Positions 8,234 to 28,568 of a DNA stretch of 64,000 nt are shown one piece after another (positions within the stretch are counted from its first letter, which is position 1; every line of letters begins with the position of its first letter). Origin of the DNA: Patescibacteria group bacterium (GTDB lineage Bacteria > Patescibacteriota > Patescibacteriia > UBA9570 > JAHJKD01); contig JAZDOC010000019.1 of the NCBI GenBank assembly GCA_043798935.1, forward strand, positions 74,322-138,321, written 5' to 3'. The notes beneath the pieces are model-generated. The model made no database searches. It saw nothing but the letters and a program-made list of their open reading frames with translations, and was not told the DNA's origin. The position numbers were made by a program, and so were the translations under genes.

Positions 8234-9349
8234 ATGGAAAAATTAAACGAATTGTTTGTAAAATTTAAAGAAAGCCGCAAAACTCAAATTATTACTGTCG
8301 TGGTTCTATTAATCGTACTGGGTATAGTTGGAATGGTTATTTTTTCTGATGATACCCAAAATTCAAACGATAATAATAATTCAACATCGCAAAAAACAGC
8401 TAATCAATTAGACACTAGCGAAGCATATCGATTAATCGATGGTATTAAAATCACAAAAAATCGCGCAAATTTCTTACCGGTAGCAATTGTAGTTGAAAAT
8501 TATGCCGGCATCCGACCACAGAGCGGTTTAGCTGATGCTAATATTGTTTATGAGGCATTAGCCGAGGGCGGAATCACTAGATTTTTAGCTATTTATGCCA
8601 GCGGTACTGACGTGAAAACAATTGGGCCAGTACGCAGTGCACGTCATTATTTTGTTGATGTTGCCGAAGAATATGGAGGTATTTTTGCTCATATTGGCGG
8701 CAGTCCACAAGCCCTAGGAATATTGTCTTTTGAAGAATATATTACTGATTTAAACCAATTTACTTATTCTCAATATTATTGGCGTGATGATAATATTGCT
8801 GCACCTCATAATTTATTTACTTCTTCAGAATTAATGTCTTATGCAATTAGAGACTTATTATCTGAAAATCCTGAAGGCAATTATACTGCTTGGAAATTTA
8901 AAGATGAAAACGCATCAAGCGTCTCTATTGATAAATACATCAAAATTGATTACAGTCTAGATCAATACGCTGTCGAATGGAAATACAATACCGCTGATAA
9001 TATTTATATGCGTTTTAATGGTGACAAAGAGCATAAAGATGCTTTAACCGATAAACAACTTACCGCAAAAAATATTATTGTTCAATTTGCAGATACCAGC
9101 CTTTTGGAAGGTGAAGCTGAACGCTTAGATATTAAAACAATCGGTGAAGGTGAAGCTTTAATATTTTTGGACGGTGAGGTTATTTCTGGAACTTGGAAAA
9201 AATCCCAACGTGGCGACAGAACTCTTTATTATGATAAAAACAATCAAGAAATTGAATTTAATCGTGGCAACACTTGGGTAGAAATGGTAAAATTAGAAAC
9301 GTCAGTTCAATGGACAGATAATAGTGGAAGCGAACAATCAAAAAATTAA
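8234..9349 (+). CDS. DUF3048-like (YerB family) membrane-anchored protein, tandem paralog 1
   Basis: 371 aa with an N-terminal TM. Conserved core (RANFLPVAIVVENYAGIRPQSGLADANIVYEALAEGGITRFLAIY ... APHNLFTSSELM) is shared with the next gene. Confidence 0.55.
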   Translation: MEKLNELFVKFKESRKTQIITVVVLLIVLGIVGMVIFSDDTQNSNDNNNSTSQKTANQLDTSEAYRLIDGIKITKNRANFLPVAIVVENYAGIRPQSGLADANIVYEALAEGGITRFLAIYASGTDVKTIGPVRSARHYFVDVAEEYGGIFAHIGGSPQALGILSFEEYITDLNQFTYSQYYWRDDNIAAPHNLFTSSELMSYAIRDLLSENPEGNYTAWKFKDENASSVSIDKYIKIDYSLDQYAVEWKYNTADNIYMRFNGDKEHKDALTDKQLTAKNIIVQFADTSLLEGEAERLDIKTIGEGEALIFLDGEVISGTWKKSQRGDRTLYYDKNNQEIEFNRGNTWVEMVKLETSVQWTDNSGSEQSKN

Positions 9350-9373: not shown

Positions 9374-10489
9374 GTGAATATAAAAATTTTTTTATTACGC
9401 ATTGTTAATAATCGAAATTATCAATTAGGAATAATGGCTGTGCTTTTAGTACTCGGTGCTATTTTAGTATGGCTGGGAGTTTTCTATAGTATTAACAATC
9501 AACCTCAAATTCCACAGCCAGAAATAGCCAAAATTAATACCAATACTAATAAGCATATTGTTCCCAAAAAATATTATCGTCTAACAGATGGCGTAGAAAC
9601 TGATAAAAACAAAACTAATCGTTTTCCTTTAGCTGTTATGATAGAAAATTTAGCCAGTAGCGAAGTTCGTCCACAATCTGGCTTAAATGATGCTGAAATT
9701 GTTTATGAAGTTATTGTTGAAGGTGGTATTACCAGATTTTTAGCAATTTATTCATCTGAAACCGAAATAAAAAAAATCGGGCCAGTGCGTAGTGCAAGAA
9801 ACACATTTTTAGAATTTGTTTCCGAATATGACGCTCTATATATACATGCCGGAGGCAGTCCAAACGCACTTCAAGCCATTGATGGTTTAAAAATCAATGA
9901 TTGTTCAGGCTTATCATCTGATGGACGTTTTTATTGGCGTGATCAACAATTTTTTGCACCTCATAATTTATTTACTTCTTCACAATTACTCACATACGCA
10001 TTACGCGATAAAAATTTACTTTCTTTAAACAGCAACTTCACTAGCTGGCAATTCAAAAATGATGAAGATGAAAATTCAAAAATTGAAAATTCAAAATTAA
10101 TCAACAACATTGAAATTGATTTTTCTGAACCTAATTATGCCGTAAAATGGGAATATAATCCTAAAAAAAATAATTATTTACGTTTAAATGGTGGTCAAAA
10201 ACATACTGATGCTCTAACCGGCAAACAACTAACTGCAAAAAATGTTATTATCGAAATTGTACCGCCGGCAACTTCAATTGACGATGAAGGACGCGTTGAT
10301 TTTTCTGTAACCGGCAGTGGTCCAGCTATCATTTTTCAAGATGGTAAAAAAATCAGTGGTACTTGGGAAAAATCATCACGCACTGAACGGACTCTTTATT
10401 TTAATGAATCCCACAAAGAAATTGAATTTAACCGCGGAAAAATTTGGATAGAAATATTACCAGCTGATCGTAGTTATACAACAAGTTAA
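9374..10489 (+). CDS. DUF3048-like (YerB family) membrane-anchored protein, tandem paralog 2
   Basis: 371 aa. GTG start preceded by a strong SD (GGGGAGG at 9358-9364). Same conserved blocks as paralog 1 (NRFPLAVMIENLASSEVRPQSGLNDAEIVYEVIVEGGITRFLAIY ... APHNLFTSSQLL). Confidence 0.55.
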   Translation: MNIKIFLLRIVNNRNYQLGIMAVLLVLGAILVWLGVFYSINNQPQIPQPEIAKINTNTNKHIVPKKYYRLTDGVETDKNKTNRFPLAVMIENLASSEVRPQSGLNDAEIVYEVIVEGGITRFLAIYSSETEIKKIGPVRSARNTFLEFVSEYDALYIHAGGSPNALQAIDGLKINDCSGLSSDGRFYWRDQQFFAPHNLFTSSQLLTYALRDKNLLSLNSNFTSWQFKNDEDENSKIENSKLINNIEIDFSEPNYAVKWEYNPKKNNYLRLNGGQKHTDALTGKQLTAKNVIIEIVPPATSIDDEGRVDFSVTGSGPAIIFQDGKKISGTWEKSSRTERTLYFNESHKEIEFNRGKIWIEILPADRSYTTS

Positions 10490-10501: not shown

Positions 10502-13500
10502 ATGATTAAATTGAAAATCGATAAAATTTTTCAATTTGTATTGTTTATTGGACTATTTTTCTTTCCTTTAATTATTCAAGCTGAAAATATAAACAATATT
10601 CGAGATAAACTTGTTTACACCGATGGTCAGATTTTAATAAAATTTAAAAATTCCAGAATTCCATTAACCAGTAAAAAAGGATTGGCGCGTTTTAAAACGC
10701 TAATCAAAGTCAATAAACTAAATCCAATTAAATTATTACCAAAAAAAAATATTGCTCTTATTAAATCATTAGATAAAAATACTGAACAATTAATTAATGA
10801 GCTTAAAGATAATTCCAATATTCAATCAGTTCAACCGAACTATATTTACCACATTGAATCTCAAACCTCTCCTTGGGGAATAGGCTCCGATGGCACAAAT
10901 GCCACCTTGGCTAAAAGCACTAATCATGTAAGCGGTGCTGGTATTATTGTTGCCGTAATCGATACGGGTGTGAATTATAATCACGAAGATCTGGATCAAA
11001 ATATGTGGATCCCAGCCACAGGCAAATGTTTAATTAGTAGTGCGCTTATATCGTGTCCAAATCACGGCTGGGATTTCATTGATTCAAGCGATAATGATCC
11101 ATTCGATGATAACGGACATGGCACTCATGTAGCCGGAACCATTGCCGCCGAAGATAATGACCTTGGAGTGATTGGTGTAGCTCCTGATGCCCAAATTATG
11201 GCTCTAAAGGCTTTAGATGAAAACGGCTCGGGCTCGTCATCGGATATTATTGAAAGTATAAATTTCGCAGTTGATAATGGAGCTAATATAATAAATTTAA
11301 GTATTGGTGGTTATGAATACGCTTCTCTGGAAAACCAAGCCATAAGTGATGCTTGGGAAGCCGGTATTACAGTGGTTTCAGCGGCCGGTAACGATTCGGA
11401 AAATATCCCTTCATTTCCGGCAGCTTTTGAAAAATCCATTGCTGTTGGAGCTGTTATCGAAAATCAGACGGATAATAACCCGAGTGAAAACATGGATACT
11501 AAATTAGCCTATTTTTCCAATTATGGTTTTAACGATGTAGTTGCACCCGGACTTAAAATATTAAGCACTTTAAACGACGGAACGTATGGATATTATTCTG
11601 GAACATCCATGGCAACACCGCATATTAGCGGCGTCGTCGCGCTTATTAAGGAAGCTCATCCAAGCTTTACCCCCGATCAAATCAAAACAGTTTTAAAAGC
11701 TACAGCTACAGATTTAGGACAAACAGGCAGTGACCGCTATTTCGGTTCTGGTTTAGCCGATGCTTTATCAGCTACTGCATCTACGATTAGTAACCACATT
11801 ATATTAACCGCTGACTTTTCTGAAATTAATGAAGAAACTGGAGAAACCACTTCAAACACAAGCTCCATAGTAGCTGATGGTTTATCTACAACTAAAATTC
11901 GTGCAATTATTATTGATGAAAATGGAAATTTTGTTAATAATCAAACATTATCATTATCGGTTGATAATGGTTCTCTAAGTGCTTATTCAATTATAACCGA
12001 TGAGATTGGACAAGCTGAATTTACTTATACCTCTTCAACGCAATCTGGCGTAGCTACTGTATGGGTTGATGCCGGATCATACGGAACAAGCAGATTAAAA
12101 ATTACTCTAGCCAATATATTACTCGTATCTGATAGTGTTGAATATTACTATAATAATAATTTTTCCTGGTACTATGAAACCATGCTTAAAAATGCACAAG
12201 TTAAGTACTCACGCTGGGATACGGCTAATGGCGATAATGAAGATTTTCCAACACTCGATTATTTAGAGAAGTTTGATCTGGTAATTTGGTACACCGGCGA
12301 TCATTATATAGAAGAATACCCGCAAAATATTTTAATTTCATATTTAGAAAATAATGGGAAATTACTATTAACCGGTCCGGATCAGCTTTATCAAGGAAAA
12401 GACATAACAACATTGTATACTTTATTAAAGGCTCAATATGCCGGCGATTTTGCTAGCGACTTTTCTGAAATTAATGGAGTAAATCTTTTAGTAAATGAAA
12501 ATTATTTTCTGGGCTTAATTGATGATTATAATTTTTTTCCTGATTATATAAACATTCTTGACAGTGGAGAAGAAATTGCAACTTATAAAAGCGGAGAGAG
12601 TGCCGGTGTAATTTATGATGGCAACTACAAAACAATGTTCTTACCATTTGGAATCGAGTCTATTTATTATAGTGTTGATCGAGATTCTTTATGGTCTAAA
12701 ATATCTGCGTTTTTTATGCCAATTACCGGTTTAGTGTTAAATTCTAATAATCAAAATTCAGTTGAAATAAGCTGGGACCAATATAGTGATCAAGAAGTAT
12801 CAACATATTTAGTCAGCTACGGTACAGATTCTCTGGCCGAAAATCTAGGTGAATTAGAAAGTAATGAAACTTCGATAACTCTAAACAATCTTGAGGCTGA
12901 TACTGCTTATTATGTAAAAGTATCGGCAAATTTAGAAAGCGGAACTAACACTGGATATTCAAGCATTCTAAATTTTACCACTCGGCCGAATGCTCCCACT
13001 AATTTAAAAGTTGATTCCCGCCAAGTTAAAAATATAACTTTAAAATGGACTGCGCCGTCTGATAATATTTCATCGTATATAATCAGTTATGGTACGAATG
13101 TCGGTGCTGATAATATTAAAACCGTTACCTCAACAACCACCAGCAAAAAAATTTCGTCTTTAAAAAGTAATTTGGCATATTATTTTAAAATATCGTCTCT
13201 GCAAGACGAATTTACGACTGATTACAGTATTGTTAAAAAAATTCGAACTCTGCCGGCCAAAGTTAATAGTAAAAAAATTAAAATTAAAAAGAGAGAAACT
13301 AATCAAATAAAAATAAAATGGGAACCAGTAAGAGGCAAAAATTTACAATATGTGATAAGATTAATGACAGCTAAAGGAAAAAAGATTAAAATAATTAGAA
13401 CCACAAAACACACAAAATTAATCACCGGTCTTAAATCCAATAAATCATATAAAATTAAAATTCGAGCCAAGCATAAAACTAGCGGCTTACTAGGTAAATA

Positions 13501-13531
13501 TTCTAAAATAAAAAAAATTAAAACAATATAA
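10502..13531 (+). CDS. secreted S8 subtilisin-like serine protease with three C-terminal fibronectin type III domains
   Basis: 1009 aa with a signal peptide. Catalytic triad blocks in D-H-S order (VAVIDTGV; HGTHVAGTIAA; GTSMATPHISG). Three ~90-aa Fn3-like repeats follow; the last is extremely Lys-rich. Confidence 0.85.
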   Translation: MIKLKIDKIFQFVLFIGLFFFPLIIQAENINNIRDKLVYTDGQILIKFKNSRIPLTSKKGLARFKTLIKVNKLNPIKLLPKKNIALIKSLDKNTEQLINELKDNSNIQSVQPNYIYHIESQTSPWGIGSDGTNATLAKSTNHVSGAGIIVAVIDTGVNYNHEDLDQNMWIPATGKCLISSALISCPNHGWDFIDSSDNDPFDDNGHGTHVAGTIAAEDNDLGVIGVAPDAQIMALKALDENGSGSSSDIIESINFAVDNGANIINLSIGGYEYASLENQAISDAWEAGITVVSAAGNDSENIPSFPAAFEKSIAVGAVIENQTDNNPSENMDTKLAYFSNYGFNDVVAPGLKILSTLNDGTYGYYSGTSMATPHISGVVALIKEAHPSFTPDQIKTVLKATATDLGQTGSDRYFGSGLADALSATASTISNHIILTADFSEINEETGETTSNTSSIVADGLSTTKIRAIIIDENGNFVNNQTLSLSVDNGSLSAYSIITDEIGQAEFTYTSSTQSGVATVWVDAGSYGTSRLKITLANILLVSDSVEYYYNNNFSWYYETMLKNAQVKYSRWDTANGDNEDFPTLDYLEKFDLVIWYTGDHYIEEYPQNILISYLENNGKLLLTGPDQLYQGKDITTLYTLLKAQYAGDFASDFSEINGVNLLVNENYFLGLIDDYNFFPDYINILDSGEEIATYKSGESAGVIYDGNYKTMFLPFGIESIYYSVDRDSLWSKISAFFMPITGLVLNSNNQNSVEISWDQYSDQEVSTYLVSYGTDSLAENLGELESNETSITLNNLEADTAYYVKVSANLESGTNTGYSSILNFTTRPNAPTNLKVDSRQVKNITLKWTAPSDNISSYIISYGTNVGADNIKTVTSTTTSKKISSLKSNLAYYFKISSLQDEFTTDYSIVKKIRTLPAKVNSKKIKIKKRETNQIKIKWEPVRGKNLQYVIRLMTAKGKKIKIIRTTKHTKLITGLKSNKSYKIKIRAKHKTSGLLGKYSKIKKIKTI

Positions 13532-16220: not shown

Positions 16221-17705
16221 ATGCATTTATCTGATTACCAAAAGTATCGCATTTTAGAAATTTTACCGGGTTTTACAGTGTGGTTTACGCTGATTGCAGT
16301 TTTTGTTTTGTCATTTATTGAACCATTACTCATGATTTATTTTATTATTGCTTTTGATCTGTATTGGTTGATGCGAGTTTTTTATTTTATTTCTTATTTG
16401 GGTTATTCATGGTATCGCTATCGCAAGGAAGATAAAATAAATTGGTTAAATAAAGTTAAGACTATAAATAACTGGGAAAACATTTATCATTTAATTTTTT
16501 TACCAACATATGGTGATGATGTAAGTATTTTGGAAACAACCTTTGCAGCCTTAGTTAAAAGTGATTATCCATTACAGAAATTTATTATTATTTTAGCCGG
16601 TGAAGAACGCGAAGGCCAAGCTTTCAATAATCGCGCTAAAAAAATTCAGGAAAAATACAGTTCATATTTTTATAAGTTCATAATTACAATCCACCCTAAA
16701 AATCAATTTGGCGAAGTTGCTGGCAAAGGATCAAATATTAATTATGCCGGTCATTTAGCACAAAATTATATTGATAGTTTAAAAATAAAATATGAAAATG
16801 TTATAGTATCCGCATTTGATATCGACACTTGTGTCAGCCGACAATATTTTAGTTATTTAACTTACAAATATTTAACTCACCCAAACCCCACTCATGCCAG
16901 TTATCAACCGCTGGCTTTATACAACAATAATGTTTGGGAATCACCTTCATTTACAAGAGTAGTTGCAAACTCAACAACTTTTTGGTTAATGACCGATCTT
17001 GCTCGACCCGAACGTTTATTTACTTTTTCTTCCCATAGCATGAGCTTTAAAACATTAGTTGATGTTGGTTTTTGGCAGAACGATATCGTAACCGAAGATT
17101 CCAGAATATTTTTACAATGTTTTATCCATTATGACGGTGATTATCAAACCGTGCCCATGTTTGTAACCGTTTCAATGGATACAGCCTATAGCGGTGATTT
17201 ATGGGGTACAATAAAAAATCAATACAAACAAATTCGACGCTGGGCGTGGGGAGTGGAGCATTTTCCGTTTATGTTCTGGCATTTTATTAAAGCCAAAAAA
17301 ATACCGTGGTCTAAAAAAATGAAATACATGTTTAATTTAACTGAAGGAATGTATTCGTGGGCGACTGCACCACTTTTAATTTTAATTCTAGGTCGATTGC
17401 CTTTATGGGTTTCAGCTCAGCAAGAAAAATCCGGCATCATTACGCAAACAGCGCCTCACATATTACAATGGTTAATGACAGCTGCTATGCTAGGAATTTT
17501 AGCATCGGCTATTATGAATGTTTACTTTCTTCCTAAACCGCCAAAAAAATATAAAAGCTATAAAATTTTAATCATGCTTTTACAATGGATATTACTACCA
17601 ATCACTATAATTATTTTTGGTTCCATACCAGCGATTGATGCTCAAACACGCCTTATGTTAGGCAAATATTTAGGCTTTTATACTACTAAAAAACTTAGGA
17701 AGTGA
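16221..17705 (+). CDS. processive family-2 glycosyltransferase (cellulose/chitin-synthase-like beta-glycan synthase)
   Basis: 494 aa. N- and C-terminal TM bundles flank a GT2 domain carrying DxD (FDIDT), TED (VTEDSRIF) and Q(I)RRW (QIRRWAWG) motifs. Confidence 0.7.
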   Translation: MHLSDYQKYRILEILPGFTVWFTLIAVFVLSFIEPLLMIYFIIAFDLYWLMRVFYFISYLGYSWYRYRKEDKINWLNKVKTINNWENIYHLIFLPTYGDDVSILETTFAALVKSDYPLQKFIIILAGEEREGQAFNNRAKKIQEKYSSYFYKFIITIHPKNQFGEVAGKGSNINYAGHLAQNYIDSLKIKYENVIVSAFDIDTCVSRQYFSYLTYKYLTHPNPTHASYQPLALYNNNVWESPSFTRVVANSTTFWLMTDLARPERLFTFSSHSMSFKTLVDVGFWQNDIVTEDSRIFLQCFIHYDGDYQTVPMFVTVSMDTAYSGDLWGTIKNQYKQIRRWAWGVEHFPFMFWHFIKAKKIPWSKKMKYMFNLTEGMYSWATAPLLILILGRLPLWVSAQQEKSGIITQTAPHILQWLMTAAMLGILASAIMNVYFLPKPPKKYKSYKILIMLLQWILLPITIIIFGSIPAIDAQTRLMLGKYLGFYTTKKLRK

Positions 17706-18539
17706 TTTCTCATACCCACATTTAAAATCATCCCAAGACATTTCCTTTTTACCCTCAGGTTGAATAATGTCTATTTTTAAAATATTATTTTGAATATGCG
17801 CTTTTTTTATTTTGAAACGTTTGTCATTGTATATAAAATATATACCAGGCCATTCTTTGTAAGCTCTTAATTTATTTATAATTGAAACTGACTTATCGTT
17901 GAATAAATCAATGCGGCCATCTTGTTTCTTTATTATTTTACATATAGAAGCATCTTTTTGGTTTTGTGGTTTTGGCAAAATTTTGCGTTCACAATATAGC
18001 TCAATATTATCTAATAATATTTTTACTCCCATTTCAGCTAATTGCTGATGCAAAGAAGTGTAGTTGTCATCAGCCGATATATTGATCTTTTTTTGTGAAA
18101 TAATCGGACCGGCGTCCATTTTTTTATCGAGAAGCATTAAAGATACACCAGTTTCAAAATCATCATTCGCTAAAGCGCTCTGAATAGGGGACGGACCGCG
18201 GTATTTGGGTAATAATGATGGGTGAATATTTAATATACCAAATGGAAATAAATTTAAAATATCTGATTTTAAAATTTGTCCATAAGAAACCAAGATACCT
18301 AAATCTGCCTGATAATCTCTAAAATCACTAATTTTAAGTTTAGATGGTTGAATTAATGACAGATTATTATTTATTGCTATATTCTTTATAGGTGAGGCAA
18401 CTAATTCTTGTTTCCGTCCCTGTGGTTTATCGGGCTGAGTTACAACTAAACAAATATCGGCATTATTATTTATTAATGCTTCTAAAAAGGGAACTGCAAA
18501 TTCAGACGTTCCAAAAAAAATAATTTTTTTATTTATCAT
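17670..18539 (-). CDS. fmt: methionyl-tRNA formyltransferase
   Basis: Formyl-transferase N- and C-domains (IIFFGTSEFAVPFLEAL...; ILNIHPSLLPKYRGPSPIQSAL). Start moved to MINKKIIFFG (Met 18 of the track ORF). Its 3' end overlaps the convergent GT2 gene by 36 nt. Confidence 0.9.
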   Translation of the reverse strand: MINKKIIFFGTSEFAVPFLEALINNNADICLVVTQPDKPQGRKQELVASPIKNIAINNNLSLIQPSKLKISDFRDYQADLGILVSYGQILKSDILNLFPFGILNIHPSLLPKYRGPSPIQSALANDDFETGVSLMLLDKKMDAGPIISQKKINISADDNYTSLHQQLAEMGVKILLDNIELYCERKILPKPQNQKDASICKIIKKQDGRIDLFNDKSVSIINKLRAYKEWPGIYFIYNDKRFKIKKAHIQNNILKIDIIQPEGKKEMSWDDFKCGYEKSLPKFFSSIKA

Positions 18540-18993
18540 TATCTTGAGCTTTATCAATAAAAAGAATTCCGTGTAAATGATCGATCTCATGTTGTAAAAC
18601 CCGTGCTAAAAAACCTTTGGCTTTAATATGAATTTTTTCGCCATTTTTATCTAGTGCTTTAATTCGAATTTTTTCTGCACGTTCTACATTTTTAAAAATA
18701 CCCGGTAAAGATAAGCAGCCTTCCTCCATAACCACAGTTTTTAAACTTAAATCAGTAATACGAGGATTAAATAAAACTAAATGGTCAGATAATTTATCGG
18801 CTTCTTTGCTAATAACGATTAATTGAATATTAGAGCCAACTTGAGGAGCGGCTAAACCAACGCCATCTTTTATAAGCATGGTTTCTGTCATATCCAAAAC
18901 CATTTGCTGATATTTCACAACATCATTTTTATTAACTTTATCTGATATTTTTCGTAAAATCGGATTTGGATTTTTAATTATATCTAATATCAT
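18529..18993 (-). CDS. def: peptide deformylase
   Basis: 154 aa with the three PDF motifs GVGLAAPQVG, EGCLSLPG and HEIDHLHG. Classic def-fmt arrangement. Confidence 0.92.
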   Translation of the reverse strand: MILDIIKNPNPILRKISDKVNKNDVVKYQQMVLDMTETMLIKDGVGLAAPQVGSNIQLIVISKEADKLSDHLVLFNPRITDLSLKTVVMEEGCLSLPGIFKNVERAEKIRIKALDKNGEKIHIKAKGFLARVLQHEIDHLHGILFIDKAQDNDK

Positions 18994-19027: not shown

Positions 19028-20515
19028 TCAATTATTTGTTTCTTTGAAAAATTGTTTAACTCTAATTTCTTGTTTAAAAAAATTTTCATAATTATTAGCA
19101 ACAGCCCATTGAATAATTTGATTATCAGGTGAATTGGTTTGAATAATTAATTTTATATTTGTGTTGACCAGTTTTCTAATTAACTGAAAAACACGTTCCG
19201 ACGCTAATTCATCAGCTGCAGCTAACTGATGATCTACTGATAAAATGCTGATTAAGTCAAATTTAATCTGATGTAAAAATTTTAAAACAAATTCGGTTCC
19301 CAAGCAAATATCGCAATCATTAATTTCTTGAATATTAAATTCGGTTTCTTTAGTTAATTCAATTATCTTTTTGTATGGAAATAATTTAATTAAATCTTGC
19401 TTTAATTTAGTTGTTCCAAAAACAATTTTTTTTAAATTTAAACTTTGACAACGCGGACAATGCAAAATAGTTGTTGAGGAAATAATCTCGCGGCAGTTTT
19501 GACATACAAGTAATTTTGCATACCCTTTGCGATTAAAAATCAACAACGATTTTTTACTAACATTTAAACTTTCAATTAAAGTATTAGAAAAAAATGAATA
19601 ATTCCCACCGATCTTTTCATTCTGCATATCCACAACTAGGCTCTGACTAGGTCTATTTCTGAACAATTTAATATTACGAAATTTATCATAAGAAGAAATT
19701 AGTGGCGCCTGGGATGTTAAGAGTATTTTATTTTTTAACTGCTCAGCAATTTCCAGCACATGATATTTAGGATTTTGATCGAAATTTTTATGAGACATAT
19801 CTTCTTCGTCATCGATAACTATCAATTTTAAATTCGAATATGGCAAAAAAATTGCATTTTTAGTGCCAATAATTAATTTAGTTTCCCCAGTCTTAATTTT
19901 TTGCCAAACTTGCCAATTTTCACTTTTCGATAGACCACTGCGATAAACAATTGGTGAAAACTTGTAAAAAACCGAAGCTAAATTATACGCTTGTTGAGTT
20001 TGTGGAACCACAATTAAAACTTGATTTTTGTTGTCGATCAGTCCTCTTAAAACAGCATTTTTTTCCGATTCATTATTATAATGCAACAAAATTGGTAATT
20101 TGCTACACTTTATTTTTTGAATTGCCATTTTAACATCACTAATTCTATTTTTACTAATTGTCTCAATTTTGGGATTAAATCTATTTGGCGTAAATGTACT
20201 TTTTTTGACTGGAATTTCCGGTAATAAAATTTTTACAGCCAAAGAAAGTGAAATATTATATTTTACAGCTAACCAATCGATTAAAATCATCTGCTCTTTA
20301 TTCAAACGCAAACGATCTTCCACTGCAATTATTTCTTTAACTTTTTTATAAGGACAAGTTTTTTTTATTTTGTAGACAACGCCAATTTTTTTGGAATTTC
20401 TAAAATTAATATATACCACATCGCCAATATTTAAATGCATGCTATCTGGAATTTTATAATCAAAACAACCAAATTTAGGAATGGTTCTGATTTTTGGAAT
20501 TATTTCAGCGTACAT
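19028..20515 (-). CDS. priA: primosomal protein N' (PriA)-like with degenerate ATPase motifs
   Basis: 495 aa. PriA 3'-DNA-binding N-domain (MYAEIIP...VVYINFRNSKKIGVVYKI), helicase-lobe blocks (VLIVVPQTQQA; GTKNAIFLPYSNLKLIVIDDEEDMSHKNFDQNPKYH) and zinc ribbon CQNC...CPRC. Walker A GxGKT is absent and DEEHD is replaced by DDEED. Confidence 0.6.
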   Translation of the reverse strand: MYAEIIPKIRTIPKFGCFDYKIPDSMHLNIGDVVYINFRNSKKIGVVYKIKKTCPYKKVKEIIAVEDRLRLNKEQMILIDWLAVKYNISLSLAVKILLPEIPVKKSTFTPNRFNPKIETISKNRISDVKMAIQKIKCSKLPILLHYNNESEKNAVLRGLIDNKNQVLIVVPQTQQAYNLASVFYKFSPIVYRSGLSKSENWQVWQKIKTGETKLIIGTKNAIFLPYSNLKLIVIDDEEDMSHKNFDQNPKYHVLEIAEQLKNKILLTSQAPLISSYDKFRNIKLFRNRPSQSLVVDMQNEKIGGNYSFFSNTLIESLNVSKKSLLIFNRKGYAKLLVCQNCREIISSTTILHCPRCQSLNLKKIVFGTTKLKQDLIKLFPYKKIIELTKETEFNIQEINDCDICLGTEFVLKFLHQIKFDLISILSVDHQLAAADELASERVFQLIRKLVNTNIKLIIQTNSPDNQIIQWAVANNYENFFKQEIRVKQFFKETNN

Positions 20516-20520
20516 AAATA

Positions 20521-21057
20521 TTATTCAGTATATCTCTTTACTAAAAATCGATATAAAGCTATTTGTTCTTTTTGCAGATTAATATATCCTTTTTGGGCAG
20601 TAATTTCTAATTGTTGGTCAACGGTATCAACTCCATCAAGCAAGGGGAGTAACAATGCAGATTTACGATTGTCTGGTGTTTGCATAAATATTCCATATTT
20701 CTTAGGATTTAATTTCTTAATATCCATAACTTGTTCTAATTCTCCTAAAACATCTACCGAAATATTTATATTACTTAATTCTGTTTGTTTTAAAGGTAAA
20801 AAACGCGGATCATAAAAAGCAGCCGAAACTGCATTATGAATTATTTCCAAAGCAACGCAAGACATTACCGGTTTGAATGTTCCGATACATCCCTGTAAAT
20901 CATGGTTAATATTATTATGCAAAGAAACAAAAACGCCAGCTTGTTTAGTCTTTAATTTACTTGGTACATCTTGCAAAGAAGACAAGGTCTTTTTATTCAC
21001 CAAATAATATTCAATGCTTTGACGCGCCAATTTGCAATAATCTAATTTTTTTTTCAT
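20521..21057 (-). CDS. AMMECR1-domain protein (AmmeMemoRadiSam system protein A)
   Basis: 178 aa with the AMMECR1 signature LQGCIGTF. Stop/start abut the Memo-like gene. Confidence 0.75.
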   Translation of the reverse strand: MKKKLDYCKLARQSIEYYLVNKKTLSSLQDVPSKLKTKQAGVFVSLHNNINHDLQGCIGTFKPVMSCVALEIIHNAVSAAFYDPRFLPLKQTELSNINISVDVLGELEQVMDIKKLNPKKYGIFMQTPDNRKSALLLPLLDGVDTVDQQLEITAQKGYINLQKEQIALYRFLVKRYTE

Positions 21058-21059
21058 GG

Positions 21060-21854
21060 TTAGCTTAAAACAAATTCTCCAACTAAATAACCAACGCCGA
21101 ATGGACCTTCATAAGATAATTTTTTAAATTTAAAATCCACTTTTTTTAATGCGCCGAGTAATATCAATAACGAACGATAGCCACATTCACCAGCCGACTC
21201 AATTAATTCTGGGCTGATTTTAACAATTTCATCAATTTTATTTTGTTCTAACAATTGAATAAGTAAATGATCAAAAGTTTGACCATTTGAATTAAATCCA
21301 CCTGGGGCGCTTTCAGACAAGCAGTGCGATAAATCTCCGGACGCAATAATAGCAATACGTTTATTGCTTTCACCGGCTACTTTTTGTAAAAGCATACCGA
21401 ATTTAATATGAGCGTTTTTATCGAGTAAGCTAAAACTAATAGGTATAATCTTAACATTGGGTAAATGTTGAGTAAGAAAATATAAAGGTACGCAAACGCC
21501 GTGATCAAGAATTGGTTGGCTGATAGTGTTGACGGCTACATTTTCCAGATCAGCTCGTTCTTTTATTTTGCTCATAAGCTCTAAATCACATTTCCAGGTC
21601 AATTCTTTTTCGTTTGAACCAAATTTAGAAAAATCACTTTTAAATTCAATAGCCAAATTTAAAGAAAAAGCTTCCGGAGTTATTAAGCTATGCGGGGAAA
21701 TTATAAAAATTATTTCCGGTTGCAAAACATATAAATCTCCTTCCATTTCATGAAATGCCGAGATTGTATCGCTTACCTTATTGGTTTCTTCTTTGCCAAT
21801 ATCAGGTATTAGAATTGGTGGATGCGGTGCTAGCCCGCTAAAAATAAAAGACAT
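21060..21854 (-). CDS. Memo1-like protein (AmmeMemoRadiSam system protein B)
   Basis: 264 aa with the Memo-family His/Asp blocks IISPHSL, LDHGVCVPLYFL and ASGDLSHCL. Confidence 0.75.
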   Translation of the reverse strand: MSFIFSGLAPHPPILIPDIGKEETNKVSDTISAFHEMEGDLYVLQPEIIFIISPHSLITPEAFSLNLAIEFKSDFSKFGSNEKELTWKCDLELMSKIKERADLENVAVNTISQPILDHGVCVPLYFLTQHLPNVKIIPISFSLLDKNAHIKFGMLLQKVAGESNKRIAIIASGDLSHCLSESAPGGFNSNGQTFDHLLIQLLEQNKIDEIVKISPELIESAGECGYRSLLILLGALKKVDFKFKKLSYEGPFGVGYLVGEFVLS

Positions 21855-21863
21855 ATGGATATA

Positions 21864-23289
21864 TTATTTTTTAGTTTTTTTCTTCTTGGTAGAAGGCAGT
21901 TTAACTGGTTTTCCTTTGTCGTGCAATTTTAATACTTGATCAGTAGTATGAATAACATTTTCCCATTTATACCCCAATTTATTAAATGCCTTGGCTGAAA
22001 CAAATGGTCTTTTTTTGCCTTTGTCGATTAGATAGACTGCATTACTACCAGGTGAAGTAACGATCTCACCATTAGCGAATTTAACTGGCTGTCCGTTAGA
22101 ATAAGAATTAATTTCCGATGCATCTTTAGGAAAAATAGTAACTCCTTTAAATTTACTGTCTAAAATTTCTTTAGACCAAATTTCTTGTTTTTTATTGTTT
22201 TTATTTATAAAAACAACTGCACCGGTTTGTTTATACTGAGCTAAAAATCCCACTGTTGTAACATCTTGTTCCATTATTAATTGACCATCAGGAATATTGG
22301 ATAAATCAGTCCACGAAGCTGGTAAAGCTTCTTCGGGATTATAGCCTAAATTTCTAAAAATTTCACGCGAAGTGATACCTCTTTTTTTTTCCGTCAATAT
22401 AAAGAAACATGGCGCCACTCGGAGCTTGAAGCAAAGTATAATTAGGGAATAAAATCGAAGCGCCCACATCGTATTGATCAAGTACGTTTTCATTGACGGC
22501 AATGGTTTTATTAATATCATAATTAGCCATTAAAGCGCCTAAAGAATTAAAGGCCATTTTCTTGTTATTCTTAATCAGATAAGTTATGCCACTATCCTGA
22601 CTTTTAAGTATTGAACCACTGGGATATTTATTAATTTCACTGTTAAAACCAAACCACTTTTTCCAAATATCCCAGAATAAAGAATTTCCGCCCACACTAG
22701 AATTTCCACCATGATATCCAATCCAGGGGGTATAAGTATAAAGCACGGCTGTAGCCTGATTGGCTGGTGTCACAGTCCCGTCACCGGTATTTTTAGTTAT
22801 GCCGATACCCCAACCAGATATAGTTGAATTTTTTGCGCTTAAATCAGTTAAATAGCTATTTCTAATTTTATTAGCGGCCGCATCAATTTGATTGGCAAAA
22901 CCAGCATATTCTCGGGAACAGCCGCCGCCATCAGGACAACCAAATCCTAAGGCCTGATCCAATAAACTATTAGTAACTGTTTTTCTAGTAACTAAACTGG
23001 CTTCTTTTTGTAATGTGGCTAAAATAAATTTCGGATTCAATACGTAACGTTGGCAGGAATTATATATAATTTGTGCAGCCGATTTAGTTTTGCCGTCAAT
23101 GTCTTTAGTTGAATAATTGGCTAAAACACCATTTTGTGTTTTTAAAAAATCTGATATTCGACTAAGCGTCATATCGTTTTTATCAGTGAGTTCAGCCGTG
23201 GTTAATATATTATTTTTATTAAAACTACTAGCCAGAGAAACTACTGGAAAAATGAAAATCAAAATTAATAATAAATATTTTTTCATCAT
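21864..23289 (-). pseudogene. secreted hypothetical protein gene split by a frameshift in an A9 homopolymer (two overlapping ORFs, 22363..23325 and 21864..22520)
   Basis: The N-terminal ORF has a signal peptide (MMKKYLLLILIFIFPVVSLASS). It ends ...FLYIDGKKKRYHFA* just after the A9 run, while the -1 frame continues ...TEKKRGITSREIF... for 175 more aa. One fewer A would give a single ~475-aa ORF. Confidence 0.5.
22382..22390. repeat. T9/A9 homopolymer tract at the frameshift site
   Basis: cTTTTTTTTTcc on the + strand, which is GGAAAAAAAAAGAGG on the coding strand. It coincides with the frame switch between the two overlapping ORFs. Confidence 0.9.
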
Positions 23290-24302
23290 AAAATAATGTC
23301 TAATGTTTGCCCACATTTTGGACACGATCCATTGATAAAAAAACAGGCTGTTTCATAGTTCTTACGATTAATAACTACTGTGCCACATTTAGGACAATGC
23401 GTATTTTCTAAATCTTCATCCCAAACATTACCGGCATAAATATTTTTCAAGCCGATTTTTTTTCCGCATGCAATTGCATCTTTAATAGTATTAATTGGGG
23501 TAGGGAATAGATTTTGCAGTTTATAAGATATTTCAGGTGAAAACCTGGAAACATGCCATGGAGTTTCAGCACCAAGTTCATTAAATATAAATTCGACTAT
23601 TTTACAAAAACCACCGCTTCTTTCGGTAATATCAGGAATTACTAACGTTGTTACTTCAACCCAAACACCTTGTTGTTTTAAATATTTTAAATTATCAAGT
23701 ACGGGCTGTAATTTGGCTCCACAAAATTTAGAATATAATTTATCATCAAAAAATTTTAAATCAATATTAATAGCGTCCAGATATGGAATTATTAAATCAA
23801 GCGTTTTTTTACTCATAAATCCATTAGAGACCCAAATGTTTTTTAAATTTTCCTGTTTAGCTAGCCTCATTACGTCAAGAGCAAATTCTAAAAAAACAGT
23901 AGGTTCAGTATATGTTGCTGCAACGCTATCGCAATTATTTTTTTTAGCTTCATGGACAATTTGTTCAGGAGTTCTATCTTGACCAATAATGCCGCCTTTT
24001 TGTAATTTTGGATACTGAGAAATTTGCCAATTTTGACAATTGTCACAACGTAAATTACACCCCACAGTCGCGTAAGAATACGTTTGCGAACCGGGTAAAA
24101 AATGAAAAAAAGGTTTCTTTTCGATTGGATCAACGGCTTCGGAAACAACTTTACCATATACCAAACTAAATAATTTTTGGTTAATATTTTGCCGAACACC
24201 ACAAAACCCAGCTTTATTTTCACTAATAAAGCATTCGTGTGCACATGTATGACACTGAACTTTATTTTGATTAAGTTTTGTATATAACAATGATTCCTTC
24301 AT
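23286..24302 (-). CDS. AmmeMemoRadiSam system radical SAM enzyme
   Basis: 338 aa. N-terminal Cys cluster (CHTCAHEC...C), canonical radical SAM CxxxCxxC (GCNLRCDNCQNW) and C-terminal CxxC pairs. Confidence 0.8.
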   Translation of the reverse strand: MKESLLYTKLNQNKVQCHTCAHECFISENKAGFCGVRQNINQKLFSLVYGKVVSEAVDPIEKKPFFHFLPGSQTYSYATVGCNLRCDNCQNWQISQYPKLQKGGIIGQDRTPEQIVHEAKKNNCDSVAATYTEPTVFLEFALDVMRLAKQENLKNIWVSNGFMSKKTLDLIIPYLDAINIDLKFFDDKLYSKFCGAKLQPVLDNLKYLKQQGVWVEVTTLVIPDITERSGGFCKIVEFIFNELGAETPWHVSRFSPEISYKLQNLFPTPINTIKDAIACGKKIGLKNIYAGNVWDEDLENTHCPKCGTVVINRKNYETACFFINGSCPKCGQTLDIIL

Positions 24303-25072: not shown

Positions 25073-25116
25073 TAATAATGTTATTATTATATCATAATAT
25101 AACCAATTTATGGAAT

Positions 25117-25806
25117 ATGATCGAATTAGTTAAAATTCTAGATATCAAAGTTCACAATCTCAATAAAGCTCAGATAACAGGCATTATTGAGGATTATTTA
25201 AAATCAAAAAAAACTCATTTTATTGCCACTCCTAACCCGGAAATAATTTTAAAATGCCAGCATAATTTCAAACTAAAAAATATTATAAATAATGCGGATT
25301 TAGCTATTCCTGACGGTTTTGGTCTATTAATCGCTTCAAAATTTAAAATCAAAACTAGAGTTTCCGGTGTTGATGTAATGACAGATATTATTAAGATTGC
25401 TGAACAAAAAAAGAATTCAATATTATTTATTATCAACCATAATGGCTTAACTCAAAAAGGGGATTTAGATAAAACTATTCAAAATAAATATCCAAATTTA
25501 TTGTATAAAATTGCTTTTTCTGATGAAAAATTGCTTTTTCAGCCATCTATTATTTTTGTCGGATTAGGCTGCCCGGATCAAGAATTTTGGATAAATGATC
25601 ATGCAAAACAATTTACTGAAGCTCGCATTCTAATGGGAGTAGGCGGGGGAATTGATTTTCTTTCTGGTAATCAAAAACGAGCTCCGAAACTTTGGCAAAA
25701 AATAGGGTTAGAATGGTTATGGCGCTTAATTCATCAACCCAATCGCATTTTAAGAATCATCAATGCGGTGATTATTTTTCCTATTAAAGCTTTAATAAAG
25801 AACTAA
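25117..25806 (+). CDS. WecB/TagA/CpsF-family glycosyltransferase (GT26)
   Basis: Blocks HFIATPNPEII, DGFGLL, VGLGCPDQEFWI and MGVGGGIDFLSGNQKRAPKLWQKIGLEWLWRL. Start moved to MIELVKIL (Met 14 of the track ORF). Confidence 0.8.
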   Translation: MIELVKILDIKVHNLNKAQITGIIEDYLKSKKTHFIATPNPEIILKCQHNFKLKNIINNADLAIPDGFGLLIASKFKIKTRVSGVDVMTDIIKIAEQKKNSILFIINHNGLTQKGDLDKTIQNKYPNLLYKIAFSDEKLLFQPSIIFVGLGCPDQEFWINDHAKQFTEARILMGVGGGIDFLSGNQKRAPKLWQKIGLEWLWRLIHQPNRILRIINAVIIFPIKALIKN

Positions 25807-25870: not shown

Positions 25871-27295
25871 ATGTCGGAAACAGTAGTTACTAGATTTGCT
25901 CCTTCACCAACCGGAAATTTACATATTGGTGGTGCCCGAACAGCGCTTTTTAACTATTTATGGGCCAAAAAAAATAACGGTAAGTTTATACTGCGCATTG
26001 AAGATACTGACCGAACCCGATATGATGCTCAAAGTGAACAATCTATTATGGAAGGTTTAAAATGGTTGGGTTTATCCTGGGATGAAGGACCGATTAAACA
26101 ATCCGACAGATTTGAAATTTATAAAAAATATGCCAGTCAGTTAGTTGAACAGGGGAAGGCTTATTATTGTTTTTGTACTCCCGAACACCTAGACATGATG
26201 CGTCAAATTCAGATGCAAAAAAATAGAGCACCCAGATATGACGGCTCATGCCGTAAACTGACTACGTCTGAAATTCAAGAAAAATTAAATAATAATAAGA
26301 AATTTGTTATTCGTTTAAAAGTACCGGAGCAGGGTATGATTATTATTAACGATTTAGTTCGCGGTGAAATCAATTTTCAATGCGCTGATGTTGATGATCA
26401 GGTGTTAATTAAATCTGATGGCTTTCCAACATACCATTTGGCTAATGTTGTTGATGATCACGAAATGGGTATAACACATGTAATTCGTGGAGAAGAGTGG
26501 ATACCGTCTACTCCTAAACATATTCTTTTATATCAAGCTTTCGGCTGGCAACCGCCACAGTTTGCACATCTTTCATTGTTTATTAATAAAGGTGGCGGTA
26601 AAATGTCTAAACGAGAAGGCGCAGTGTCATTACTTAATTATCGCGATCAAGGTTATCTGCCCGAAGCCGTAAACAATTTTATGGCGTTTTTAGGGTGGAA
26701 CCCCAAAAATGAAAAAGAATTTTTTAATTTAACTGAATTAATTAGTGAGTTTGATTTGCACAAAATTCATAAAGCCAACCCTATTTTTGATATTCAAAAA
26801 CTTGATTTTTATAATGGTTATTATTTACGTAAAAAAAATATTGATGAATTCTATGATTTAGCCAAGCCATATTTAAATTCGGAATATACAAGAGATGAAA
26901 AATATATTAAACAAATATTGTCTTTAGAGCAGGAAAGGGTTAAAAAACTTACTGATCTAAACGACATGATTGGTTATTTTTTTACCGACTCTCTACAATA
27001 CGATAAAACAATGTTAATTTGGAAAAAAGAAGCACCTGAAAAAATTAAAGATAATTTAATAAAACTAGCCACGGCTTTACAAAAAATTAATGAATCAGAT
27101 TGGTATAAAGAAAAAATTGAAAGTACAATTTTAAACTGGATTCAACAAAATAATTATTCTAATGGCGAAATTCTTTGGCCCATGCGCGTAAGTTTAACTG
27201 GTTTAAAGGCTTCACCTTCACCGTTTGAAGTTTCTAGTGTTTTAAAAAAAGAAAAATCTATTGCTCGTATACAAACGGCTATAAATTTGCTATAA
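25871..27295 (+). CDS. gltX: glutamyl-tRNA synthetase
   Basis: 474 aa. HIGH motif (PTGNLHIGGARTALFNY) and KMSKS (KMSKREG). Confidence 0.95.
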   Translation: MSETVVTRFAPSPTGNLHIGGARTALFNYLWAKKNNGKFILRIEDTDRTRYDAQSEQSIMEGLKWLGLSWDEGPIKQSDRFEIYKKYASQLVEQGKAYYCFCTPEHLDMMRQIQMQKNRAPRYDGSCRKLTTSEIQEKLNNNKKFVIRLKVPEQGMIIINDLVRGEINFQCADVDDQVLIKSDGFPTYHLANVVDDHEMGITHVIRGEEWIPSTPKHILLYQAFGWQPPQFAHLSLFINKGGGKMSKREGAVSLLNYRDQGYLPEAVNNFMAFLGWNPKNEKEFFNLTELISEFDLHKIHKANPIFDIQKLDFYNGYYLRKKNIDEFYDLAKPYLNSEYTRDEKYIKQILSLEQERVKKLTDLNDMIGYFFTDSLQYDKTMLIWKKEAPEKIKDNLIKLATALQKINESDWYKEKIESTILNWIQQNNYSNGEILWPMRVSLTGLKASPSPFEVSSVLKKEKSIARIQTAINLL

Positions 27296-27305: not shown

Positions 27306-28568
27306 ATGAAAAAAATAACTAAAATTAGCTTATTATTAGTATTCATTAGTATTTTTTTGGGACTGACAACCAATATTTGTTTTGCTAGTTCGCAAAAAGA
27401 AATTGACAGCTTGCAAAACAAAATTAATAGCAAACAAAGCGTAATTGATGAGCTTGACGCTAAAATCAAAGTTTATAAAAATAATATTGCCAAAAAAAAT
27501 GAAGAGGAGTTAGCTTTAAATAATCAAATCAGTATTATTAACGATTCAATCAACCAAACAGAAACTGAAATCGATAAAACTACTGCCGAGATATCTAAGC
27601 TTGATGATCAAATAAAATTAGTTAAAAACCAAATTGAAAAAACTGAAAGTGGCATCAATGTAAAACAAGATCAAATTTCCGAATACATATTAAATATATA
27701 TCAACTTGAAAATAAAACTAATTTAGAAATATTCTTATCTGATAGTTCATTATCAGATTATTTTTCACGACTCGAATATACTTCCCAACTCCAAGAAAAA
27801 TTTCAAGAAATAATGAGTCAATTAAAACAATTGAAAGATCAATTGAAAGATCAAAATGATGACTTAAATGACAATAAGGATGAGCAAGAAACAAAAAAAA
27901 TTATTCTAAAATCAAAACAAGATTCAGCTAAAGAGGAAAAATCTTATAAAAATGAACTTCTAGAAGAAACTCAGGCTGACGAAGAAAAATTTCAAGAATT
28001 AGTGGCCCAAATTCAAAAAGAAGAACAGCAAAGTAACTCGGAAATCGCTGCATTAGAAAAAACCATGCGCACTAAAATCGATGAAGCAAACAGAAAAAAA
28101 AATAATAATTCTAATACCAACACTTCAAACACAGATAATAGTATAATTAATGCCGATGGTTTTGATCCACAATGGCCCGTCACCGGACGAGTTATTACGG
28201 TTTATTTTAGAGATCCTTCATATCCCTTTAGAGCTTACTTTGAACATTTGGCTATTGATATCGACGGAGAGCAAGGAGATCCCATTTATGCTTGTGATGA
28301 CGGCGTTGTAGCCATAGCAAAATTTGATGGAACGCCAGCTTATAGCTATATCATGCTGATTCATGCCGATGGTTTTGCCACTGTTTACGGTCATACAAGT
28401 GCTGTCTATGTAACGCCTGATCAAATAGTTAAGAAAGGGGATTTAATAGGTTTAATGGGTGGCATGCGAGGAGGTATTGGATCTGGAGCGTTTACAACCG
28501 GCTCGCATATTCATTTTGCCATTAAACAAAATGGAATCTATGTTGATCCGTTAAACTATTTACCGTAA
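27306..28568 (+). CDS. M23-family (LytM) peptidase with long N-terminal coiled-coil (EnvC-like)
   Basis: 420 aa. Signal peptide, ~250-aa coiled-coil, and a C-terminal M23 domain with HLAIDI and GHTSAVYV...GSHIHFAI metal-ligand blocks. Confidence 0.85.
   Translation: MKKITKISLLLVFISIFLGLTTNICFASSQKEIDSLQNKINSKQSVIDELDAKIKVYKNNIAKKNEEELALNNQISIINDSINQTETEIDKTTAEISKLDDQIKLVKNQIEKTESGINVKQDQISEYILNIYQLENKTNLEIFLSDSSLSDYFSRLEYTSQLQEKFQEIMSQLKQLKDQLKDQNDDLNDNKDEQETKKIILKSKQDSAKEEKSYKNELLEETQADEEKFQELVAQIQKEEQQSNSEIAALEKTMRTKIDEANRKKNNNSNTNTSNTDNSIINADGFDPQWPVTGRVITVYFRDPSYPFRAYFEHLAIDIDGEQGDPIYACDDGVVAIAKFDGTPAYSYIMLIHADGFATVYGHTSAVYVTPDQIVKKGDLIGLMGGMRGGIGSGAFTTGSHIHFAIKQNGIYVDPLNYLP

Follow-up and report, generated by a model that had tools for sequence, protein, structure and literature searches.

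How much of the replication restart protein PriA can be lost while the gene itself is kept? The question is raised by a reading frame in a 64-kb stretch of DNA (contig JAZDOC010000019.1 of a Patescibacteria group bacterium; the whole stretch is called the window below). A sequence-only reading had taken the 495-aa product of this frame, here the window protein, for a PriA that had lost its helicase motifs. Our analysis makes it probable that the frame encodes the chromosomal PriA orthologue of a member of the Patescibacteria (candidate phyla radiation, CPR), evolved into a minimal, ATP-independent pseudohelicase that retains just the 3′ DNA-binding domain, a pair of dead RecA-like lobes and a zinc ribbon with a single zinc. 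The coordinates of all features are collected in Table 1.

The window protein is identical to NCBI MFH0819184.1 ('Patescibacteria group bacterium'), which was deposited merely as a 'DEAD/DEAH box helicase'. Pfam recognizes the PriA 3′ DNA-binding domain (PF17764) at aa 13-99 (E 1.3e-15, 57.4 bits against a cutoff of 22.7) and a partial helicase lobe 1 (PF00270, DEAD) at aa 160-268 (2.3e-7). Nine NCBIfam PriA models (PRK05580/TIGR00595) match it at 1e-65 to 1e-35, all far below their curated cutoffs: TIGR00595 scores 174.5 bits against an equivalog cutoff of 230.35, NF004066 scores 219.7 against 813, and the remaining PriA models fall even further under theirs. PriA chains were the only solved structures matched significantly in a sequence search of PDB (E ~2e-33). 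A confident AlphaFold2 (AF2) model built from a 23-sequence alignment (pLDDT 89.2, pTM 0.86) found PriA chains as its nine best Foldseek matches (E 2e-30 to 2e-20, TMq 0.67-0.79). The next family was Mfd, so much weaker (E 6e-11, TMq 0.36) that membership in another superfamily-2 (SF2) family was rejected.

Because the sequence matches in Pfam, NCBIfam and PDB, which are much stronger than chance would give, and the matches of the predicted fold all point to PriA, the protein is best classed as PriA-like and not with any other SF2 group. The sequence-only reading had identified PriA from the 3′ DNA-binding domain, helicase lobe 1 and zinc ribbon; since sequence, fold and the gene order priA-def-fmt agree on this point, we regard the window protein as PriA in evolutionary terms. 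It departs, however, from the 'replication restart helicase PriA' equivalog in the features tested, namely motifs I, II, III and VI, the Cys-rich region with eight cysteines, whose four CxxC pairs bind two zinc ions, the C-terminal domain and the score cutoffs.

The catalytic motifs were read with E. coli PriA as a residue ruler in two independent alignments, and their coordinates were checked by translation. As had been read earlier, the P-loop position, ILLHYNNESEKNAV, has no GxxxxGK[TS]. Column for column, G224 of E. coli PriA corresponds to Y146, G229 to E151, K230 to K152 and T231 to N153, so that the core of the motif, HYNNESEKN, is free of glycine, has Glu151 at the G of GKT and Asn153 at its T, and keeps the Walker A lysine itself. 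The replacement of the Walker B sequence DEEHD by DDEED also stands (aa 235-239 against E. coli D320-D324): the catalytic Glu, E321 in E. coli, is Asp here and variable across the family, and His323 has become Glu. The arginine fingers of motif VI (GRAGR) are deleted, with KLVNTN in their place, and none is left in the window protein. The loss of helicase motifs is wider than had been noted, with motifs I, II (catalytic Glu), III and VI all affected. A hidden P-loop, mis-aligned by eye, was looked for by profile and multiple alignments of the window protein and was rejected, none being present. With such motifs the window protein is predicted to have no ATPase activity. One further idea, that an acidic residue at position 229 pairs with the retained lysine as a phosphate mimic, was dropped: among 154 degenerate sequences Asp or Glu at 229 showed no association with Lys or Arg at 230 (42/37/43/32, Fisher p = 0.63).

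Whole modules are missing as well. The earlier estimate of ~495 aa against ~730 was accurate (495 aa against 732 aa in E. coli PriA), and the deficit comes mainly from the winged-helix region (38 aa against 95), the Cys-rich region (24 against 49), shortened lobes (178 against 215 aa in helicase domain 1, and 135 against 162 in the part of helicase domain 2 after the Cys-rich region) and total loss of the C-terminal domain, whose 88 residues in E. coli (645-732) face one aligned residue here. The 3′ DNA-binding domain is 101 aa long against 105. PF18074 (PriA_C) has no Pfam match in the window protein, and no C-terminal domain can be hidden downstream because def begins just 34 nt after the stop codon. 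The linker that stands in for the winged helix is the least conserved part of the protein (conservation 0.24). The winged helix is also missing in two relatives with canonical motifs, P0017 and P0025, so that it is not a universal component.

In the Cys-rich region only one CxxC pair had been counted, which was an undercount: two pairs remain, C338-x2-C341 and C353-x2-C356, invariant in the alignments and corresponding to the first and fourth pairs of E. coli PriA (C436/C439 and C476/C479). The second and third E. coli pairs (C445/C448 and C463/C466) are deleted, as is the 14-residue stretch that separates them. One four-Cys zinc-ribbon site remains, and its equation with a particular zinc site of the E. 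coli protein is provisional. The confidence of the AF2 model drops in this region (pLDDT 61-68). The strand-separation hairpin of E. coli PriA probably lies between C448 and C463, that is, in the deleted segment, and loss of this wedge fits loss of the motor.

Table 1. Features of the degenerate priA gene and its neighbourhood in the window (aa, residues of the window protein)
Feature	Coordinates	Strand	Basis or remark
priA orthologue, degenerate 'pseudohelicase' form	19028..20515	minus	495 aa, ATG start, TAA stop
3′ DNA-binding domain (aa 1-100)	20216..20515	minus	PF17764 and residue mapping
38-aa linker (aa 101-138) replacing the ~95-aa winged-helix region of E. coli PriA	20102..20215	minus	alignment
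RecA-like helicase lobe 1, catalytically degenerate (aa 139-330)	19526..20101	minus	Pfam DEAD, AF2, Foldseek
Pseudo-Walker A, ILLHYNNESEKNAV (aa 142-155)	20051..20092	minus	column-for-column alignment with E. coli PriA Walker A
Pseudo-motif II, DDEED (aa 235-239)	19799..19813	minus	aligns with E. coli D320-E321-E322-H323-D324
Post-motif II loop, MSHKNFDQNPKYHVL (aa 240-254)	19754..19798	minus	conservation and alignment
Motif III remnant, TSQAP (aa 267-271)	19703..19717	minus	canonical PriA has GSATP (SAT to SQA)
Mini Cys-rich region, CQNC-x11-CPRC (aa 338-356)	19448..19504	minus	four Cys invariant in every alignment
RecA-like helicase lobe 2 (aa 363-495)	19031..19429	minus	stops where the PriA C-terminal domain would start
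Deleted motif VI site, IRKLVNTNIK (aa 446-455)	19151..19180	minus	E. coli has QVAGRAGRAGK
def (peptide deformylase)	18529..18993	minus	PF01327, 6.6e-51; directly downstream of priA
fmt (methionyl-tRNA formyltransferase)	17670..18590	minus	PF00551/PF02911
AMMECR1	20521-21057	minus	upstream of priA, 5 nt from priA start
LigB/Memo	21060-21854	minus	upstream of priA
Radical SAM enzyme	23286-24302	minus	third member of the upstream trio
WecG	25078-25806		extended priA neighbourhood
GluRS	25871-27295		assigned by eye from N-terminus
M23 peptidase	27306-28568		extended priA neighbourhood

Is this state a peculiarity of one genome? A word-indexed search returned 11 close relatives in the same state (42-50% identity, 462-513 aa) and, further off, degenerate forms of 557-651 aa. 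When a profile built from the close clade was run against 1.84 billion cluster representatives, it gave 18,839 matches at E <= 0.001, and the best 150 of these were classified on the E. coli ruler. Neither Walker A nor GRxGR is present in 141 of these 150, canonical motifs were found in eight, and the one sequence scored as mixed (P0238) reads EVTGSGKT, which is effectively canonical; the profile was built from degenerate forms and its ranking favours them, so these counts are lower bounds and not a fraction of all PriAs. The motif loss is in any case shared by relatives, and a survey of this kind had been proposed from the sequence alone. Eight cysteines and a C-terminal domain are retained by 85 of the 141 degenerate representatives, while 50 are of the window-protein type, with four cysteines and without a C-terminal domain; the two mixed combinations, four cysteines with the domain and eight without it, occur three times each. 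Throughout 154 degenerate sequences the erosion of the ATP site is deep: in 140 the six positions G224-G229 are all without glycine, Lys followed by Thr or Ser survives in just eight, and the Asp-Glu of motif II in just 14.

On a neighbour-joining tree, which is rough and carries no support values, the canonical forms lie near the root, the degenerate forms with eight cysteines form a grade, the three forms with four cysteines and a C-terminal domain come next, and all 57 forms with four cysteines and no C-terminal domain fall inside one nested cluster. Parsimony on this tree counts three changes for the ATPase state, three for the cysteines and four for the C-terminal domain. Such an arrangement suggests that PriA was reduced stepwise. 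The three degenerate PriAs with four cysteines that keep the C-terminal domain (P0233, P0236 and P0257) look like intermediates between the eight-Cys and the minimal forms; the Cys-rich region of P0233 has its full length (48 aa), so its inner cysteines were substituted and not deleted. Organism names, where the sources give them, are Patescibacteria, and the breadth of the distribution rests on very few names. Relatives were also seen in two GTDB representative metagenome-assembled genomes titled 'uncultured Gammaproteobacteria bacterium', L002 (CAZNEH010000015.1) and L006 (CAZRYK010000008.1). The title of L002 is probably a placeholder, because that locus has the same Memo-priA-def-fmt-GT2-permease order and 37% GC.

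How strongly is such a reduced gene still constrained? The ratio of nonsynonymous to synonymous substitutions (dN/dS) was estimated by the Nei-Gojobori method on two independent close pairs, with the neighbouring genes taken from the same pairs. For priA it was 0.134 (dS 0.50) in P0007/P0010 and 0.133 (dS 1.27) in P0003/P0004; in the same order def gave 0.04 and 0.13, and fmt 0.13 and 0.17. The gene is under purifying selection and is not decaying. The linker with the pseudo-Walker A is its most relaxed region (0.37 and 0.23), and the dead lobes are tightly constrained (0.08-0.14).

The residues tell the same story in a finer grain. The 3′-end pocket is kept in the window protein, where F18-D19-Y20 corresponds to F16-D17-Y18 of E. 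coli PriA and K60 to K61; among the 141 degenerate representatives F16 is found in 128, D17 in 94 and Y18 in 137, and the K61 equivalent is Lys in 114 and Arg in 13. The segment MSHKNFDQNPKYHVL matches by position the loop region of E. coli PriA, rich in aromatic and basic residues, that contacts DNA, the boundaries of that loop being approximate. It is the most conserved 15-mer among the 57 four-Cys forms (conservation 0.71), and in the 141 representatives K328 is retained in 121, Q329 in 115, R334 in 132 and Y335 in 118, with Phe at the last position in another 22. The ATP site drifts: G224 has become Tyr in 81 of the 141, G229 Asp or Glu in 65 and T231 Leu, Ile or Val in 64, and the E321 position holds Q in 47, D in 34, E in 16 and N in 15. 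In E. coli PriA the terminal nucleotide of the 3′ end is bound by D17, Y18 and K61, and lobe 1 can be crosslinked to the fork junction through its aromatic/basic loop (PMC5778457). Since residues that contact DNA are conserved and those of the ATP site drift, DNA recognition and the scaffold, not nucleotide chemistry, appear to be under selection.

The position of the gene bears on its orthology. The order priA-def-fmt was found in nine loci with degenerate forms and in two with canonical forms, and Memo-priA-def-fmt-GT2-permease, with GT2 on the opposite strand, in nine of the 11 loci that carry degenerate relatives. The canonical P0023 (GPASSGKT, DEEQD, GSATP, GRTGR) and P0120 (GPSASGKT, DEEQD, GSATP, GRTNR) lie in the arrangement M23 peptidase-GluRS-...-WecG-...-priA-def-fmt, and the window holds the same extended neighbourhood. 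Because canonical forms occupy this very neighbourhood, the motifs must have decayed in place in the ancestral gene; the window gene is the priA orthologue in its ancestral slot and not a stray paralogue. Searching with three canonical PriAs as tblastn queries found a single PriA-like locus in the window. Immediately 5′ of priA lies a trio of the AmmeMemoRadiSam type (20521-24302, minus strand), and a Memo gene stands beside or near priA in eight related loci. The longest fmt reading frame overlaps the end of def by 62 nt, and its 17 leading residues lie outside the Pfam match (domain from aa 21); the true start is probably the internal Met at MINKKIIFFG. No gene for DnaB, DnaC/DnaI, DciA, DnaD, PriB, DnaT or SSB was seen in the window, by Pfam on 30 other open reading frames (ORFs) and by reading the N-termini of the rest.

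What could a PriA of this kind do? We propose that the 3′ DNA-binding pocket (F18-D19-Y20 and K60) would capture the nascent leading-strand 3′ end at an abandoned fork or D-loop, while the post-motif II loop and the cleft between the two lobes would hold the lagging-strand template without translocation. The bound protein could then offer the replicative helicase DnaB a place to land without ATP, either by direct contact, as reported for D. radiodurans PriA, or with the help of the loader of the lineage. A duplex lagging arm could presumably not be unwound, because the motifs for ATP binding and hydrolysis (I, II and VI), the coupling of ATPase to unwinding (III) and the segment of the Cys-rich region with the proposed hairpin are gone. 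Purifying selection together with the selective conservation of DNA-contacting residues argues for retention of the protein for fork recognition or primosome assembly, as the sequence-only reading had supposed; fork binding and recruitment of DnaB are attributed to it by analogy. In the E. coli PriA/PriB/fork structure the winged helix and helicase lobe 1 lie on the parental duplex, the 3′ DNA-binding and C-terminal domains on the leading duplex, and the Cys-rich region, helicase lobe 2 and C-terminal domain frame a pore for lagging-strand single-stranded DNA (ssDNA), with the β-hairpin of the Cys-rich region as the proposed unwinding wedge (PMC10175261). The SSB-tail site lies between lobe 1, the 3′ DNA-binding domain and the C-terminal domain (PMC5778457). 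With the winged helix, the C-terminal domain and the Cys-rich segment absent, the E. coli-type pore, the SSB-tail site and part of the contacts with the duplex arms would be impossible in the same form.

Other explanations have to be weighed. That the gene is a pseudogene in progress or a mis-called ORF would agree with NCBIfam scores far under the curated cutoffs and with the NCBI names 'DEAD/DEAH box helicase' or 'hypothetical protein', but the frame is intact with a conserved N-terminus (MYAEIIP), the AF2 model is confident, the state is common to at least 141 diverged cluster representatives and dN/dS equals that of the essential neighbours; a pseudogene was rejected on this ratio (~0.13, like def and fmt), and we assign decay or artefact a negligible probability. 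It is very improbable that the helicase work falls to a canonical PriA encoded elsewhere in the genome, with the window copy as an accessory: the sequence examined is 64 kb of that genome, from a contig of 175,932 bp, which leaves room for one, yet the gene stands in the ancestral priA-def-fmt slot, which holds the canonical form in related genomes, the window has just one PriA-like match, and small CPR genomes seldom keep duplicates. A cryptic ATPase, binding and hydrolysing nucleotide through a non-canonical pocket of K152, D235 and E237, might be argued from the alignment of K152 with the catalytic K230, from the invariance of D235 and E237 in the close clade and from the weaker, second nucleotide site that has been reported for E. 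coli PriA (PMC5778457). The P-loop, however, is free of glycine, with Glu at the Gly of GKT and Asn for Thr, the catalytic Glu position varies across the family, the arginine fingers of motif VI are deleted, K230 is found in only 54 of the 141 homologues, and the pseudo-Walker A evolves faster than the rest of the protein; in E. coli the lone change K230R already abolishes the ATPase. We hold this explanation to be quite improbable.

A less remote alternative, which we nevertheless consider unlikely, is that the dead PriA scaffold has been kept for a job other than restart, such as protection of forks or D-loops, or the loading of DnaB in general, at both the origin and forks. Strong purifying selection on a protein without catalytic motifs would suit such a DNA-binding protein, as would the loss of the modules that bind PriB, SSB and the duplex arms in E. 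coli (PMC10175261) and the lack of a known restart partner nearby in the window. The elements preserved, on the other hand, are exactly those of fork and 3′-end recognition, the gene remains in the ancestral priA slot, and the Deinococcus precedent described below retains a restart-like profile of activities. An ATP-independent PriA orthologue accounts better for these facts, and several observations count against it all the same. The window protein and 54 of the 141 relatives retain the Walker A lysine, 105 of these relatives keep the first Asp of motif II, and a non-canonical nucleotide site in the window protein stays formally conceivable. Loss of the winged helix and the C-terminal domain removes the parental and leading duplex contacts of the E. 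coli type and part of the SSB-tail site (PMC10175261, PMC5778457), and fork specificity may differ. Helicase-dead E. coli PriA needs PriB and DnaT, which are not expected in this lineage and of which none was seen in the window, and the 64 kb hold no gene for DnaB, a loader or SSB either.

If the stepwise order is taken at face value, a broader and much more tentative scenario can be drawn, to which we give rather less than even credence: a large part of the Patescibacteria radiation may have reduced PriA in steps (ATPase motifs, then the inner zinc module with its probable unwinding hairpin, then the C-terminal domain) to an irreducible core of 3′ DNA-binding domain, two inert RecA lobes and one zinc ribbon, which by itself would recognize abandoned forks and load DnaB there without ATP, PriB, DnaT or the SSB-tail site. 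This minimal core might be the general helicase-loading adaptor of the lineage as well. If that is true, structure-specific recruitment would be the ancestral essential function of PriA and helicase activity an accessory one. The family would in any event be the second natural case of a dead PriA after Deinococcus, and a much larger and more extreme one, with at least 141 diverged clusters without ATPase motifs and, nested in them, at least 50 in which the winged helix, one half of the zinc region and the C-terminal domain have gone as well; this nested minimal class is constrained as strongly as def and fmt. The family amounts to a natural deletion series showing which parts of PriA are dispensable for whatever keeps the gene essential, and the 495-aa protein could be a small model for ATP-independent replisome reloading in bacteria without PriB and DnaT. 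There is an annotation problem too: PriA orthologues of the P0001/P0121 type, being under the cutoffs, are labelled 'DEAD/DEAH box helicase' or 'hypothetical protein', and genome surveys may wrongly record for such lineages either that PriA is absent or that an active helicase is present.

Several other features of the window were seen in passing. At 34359-36413 (minus strand) lies a class II tRNA synthetase of the lysyl/aspartyl type (PF00152 and an anticodon OB domain) that bears at its C-terminal side an HD phosphohydrolase domain (aa 521-595, E 1.1e-8), an unusual fusion. Tandem 371-aa paralogues at 8234-9349 and 9374-10489 (plus strand) each combine both DUF3048 domains, N- and C-terminal, with a membrane anchor at the N-terminus, and are followed by a 1009-aa ORF (10502-13531). 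Two MreB-like genes on the minus strand (40259-41311 and 48031-49038), ~7 kb apart, were recognized by eye from their N-termini GIDLGTANT and GIDLGTVNT; ORFs resembling mreC and mreD follow the first, also by eye.

A literature search on PriA in CPR, Patescibacteria and Saccharibacteria found no description of PriA motif loss in the papers covered. Actinobacterial PriA, too, is reportedly annotated without helicase domains. In bioRxiv 2022.01.26.477801 priA is mentioned only as a neighbour gene, in phylum UBP6, and a 2018 review names Deinococcus as the sole exception.

How, then, does the window protein compare with the PriAs already described? With canonical PriA (E. coli and Klebsiella pneumoniae; PDB 4NL4, 6DGD, 8FAK) it shares the 3′ DNA-binding domain with its F-D-Y/K pocket, two RecA-like lobes, the fold (TMq 0.77-0.79), a zinc ribbon inserted in lobe 2 and the post-motif II loop; in many bacteria def-fmt adjoins priA, as in the window. 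It differs in being without the Walker A glycines and Thr, the catalytic Glu and the motif VI arginines, in having SQA for SAT and four cysteines instead of eight, and in lacking the inner Cys segment, the winged helix and the C-terminal domain. The eight-Cys degenerate PriAs of ~600-700 aa from related uncultivated bacteria (for example P0015 and P0016) have likewise lost motifs I, II, III and VI; P0015 has the same synteny as the window, and on the rough neighbour-joining tree these forms are the grade from which the four-Cys class emerges.

The precedent of engineered helicase-dead mutants that support restart, cited by the sequence-only reading, is sound, but such mutants are not the only one. 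K230R alone abolishes the ATPase, helicase and translocase of E. coli PriA and leaves primosome assembly and near-normal growth; K230R, K230A and K230D proteins all support restart (PMC5778457). A natural case, and the one precedent found that has been shown by experiment, is the D. radiodurans pseudohelicase (Lopper et al. 2015, PMC4504706), likewise a PriA with degenerate motifs I and II. It shows no measurable ATPase or unwinding and binds ssDNA (Kd ~215 nM), forks (~109 nM) and DnaB, and Deinococcus-Thermus PriAs stray from consensus chiefly in motifs I and II, for example from GKT to GRT (PMC4504706). No loss of the Cys-rich region, C-terminal domain or motif VI has been reported there, whereas the present family has erased the whole P-loop together with entire modules. 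The two losses were presumably independent, because they belong to different phyla and canonical relatives occupy the same locus here.

The engineered E. coli variants, priA300 (K230R) and K230A/D, are dead as ATPases and helicases, yet they can assemble primosomes and behave almost like the wild type in vivo (PMC5778457). Each differs by one residue from an otherwise complete six-domain protein, depends on PriB and DnaT and does not work in the PriA-PriC pathway, while the window protein has lost the surface context of the Cys-rich region on which PriB docks in E. coli and the pore-forming C-terminal domain. The engineered E. coli PriA without a winged helix (PDB 6DCR) is among the best structural matches (E 1.8e-28, TMq 0.76), yet unlike the window protein it keeps the ATPase motifs, the full Cys-rich region and the C-terminal domain. 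By analogy, then, the window protein would come closest in its way of working to the Deinococcus pseudohelicase and to engineered priA300, in a far more reduced form.

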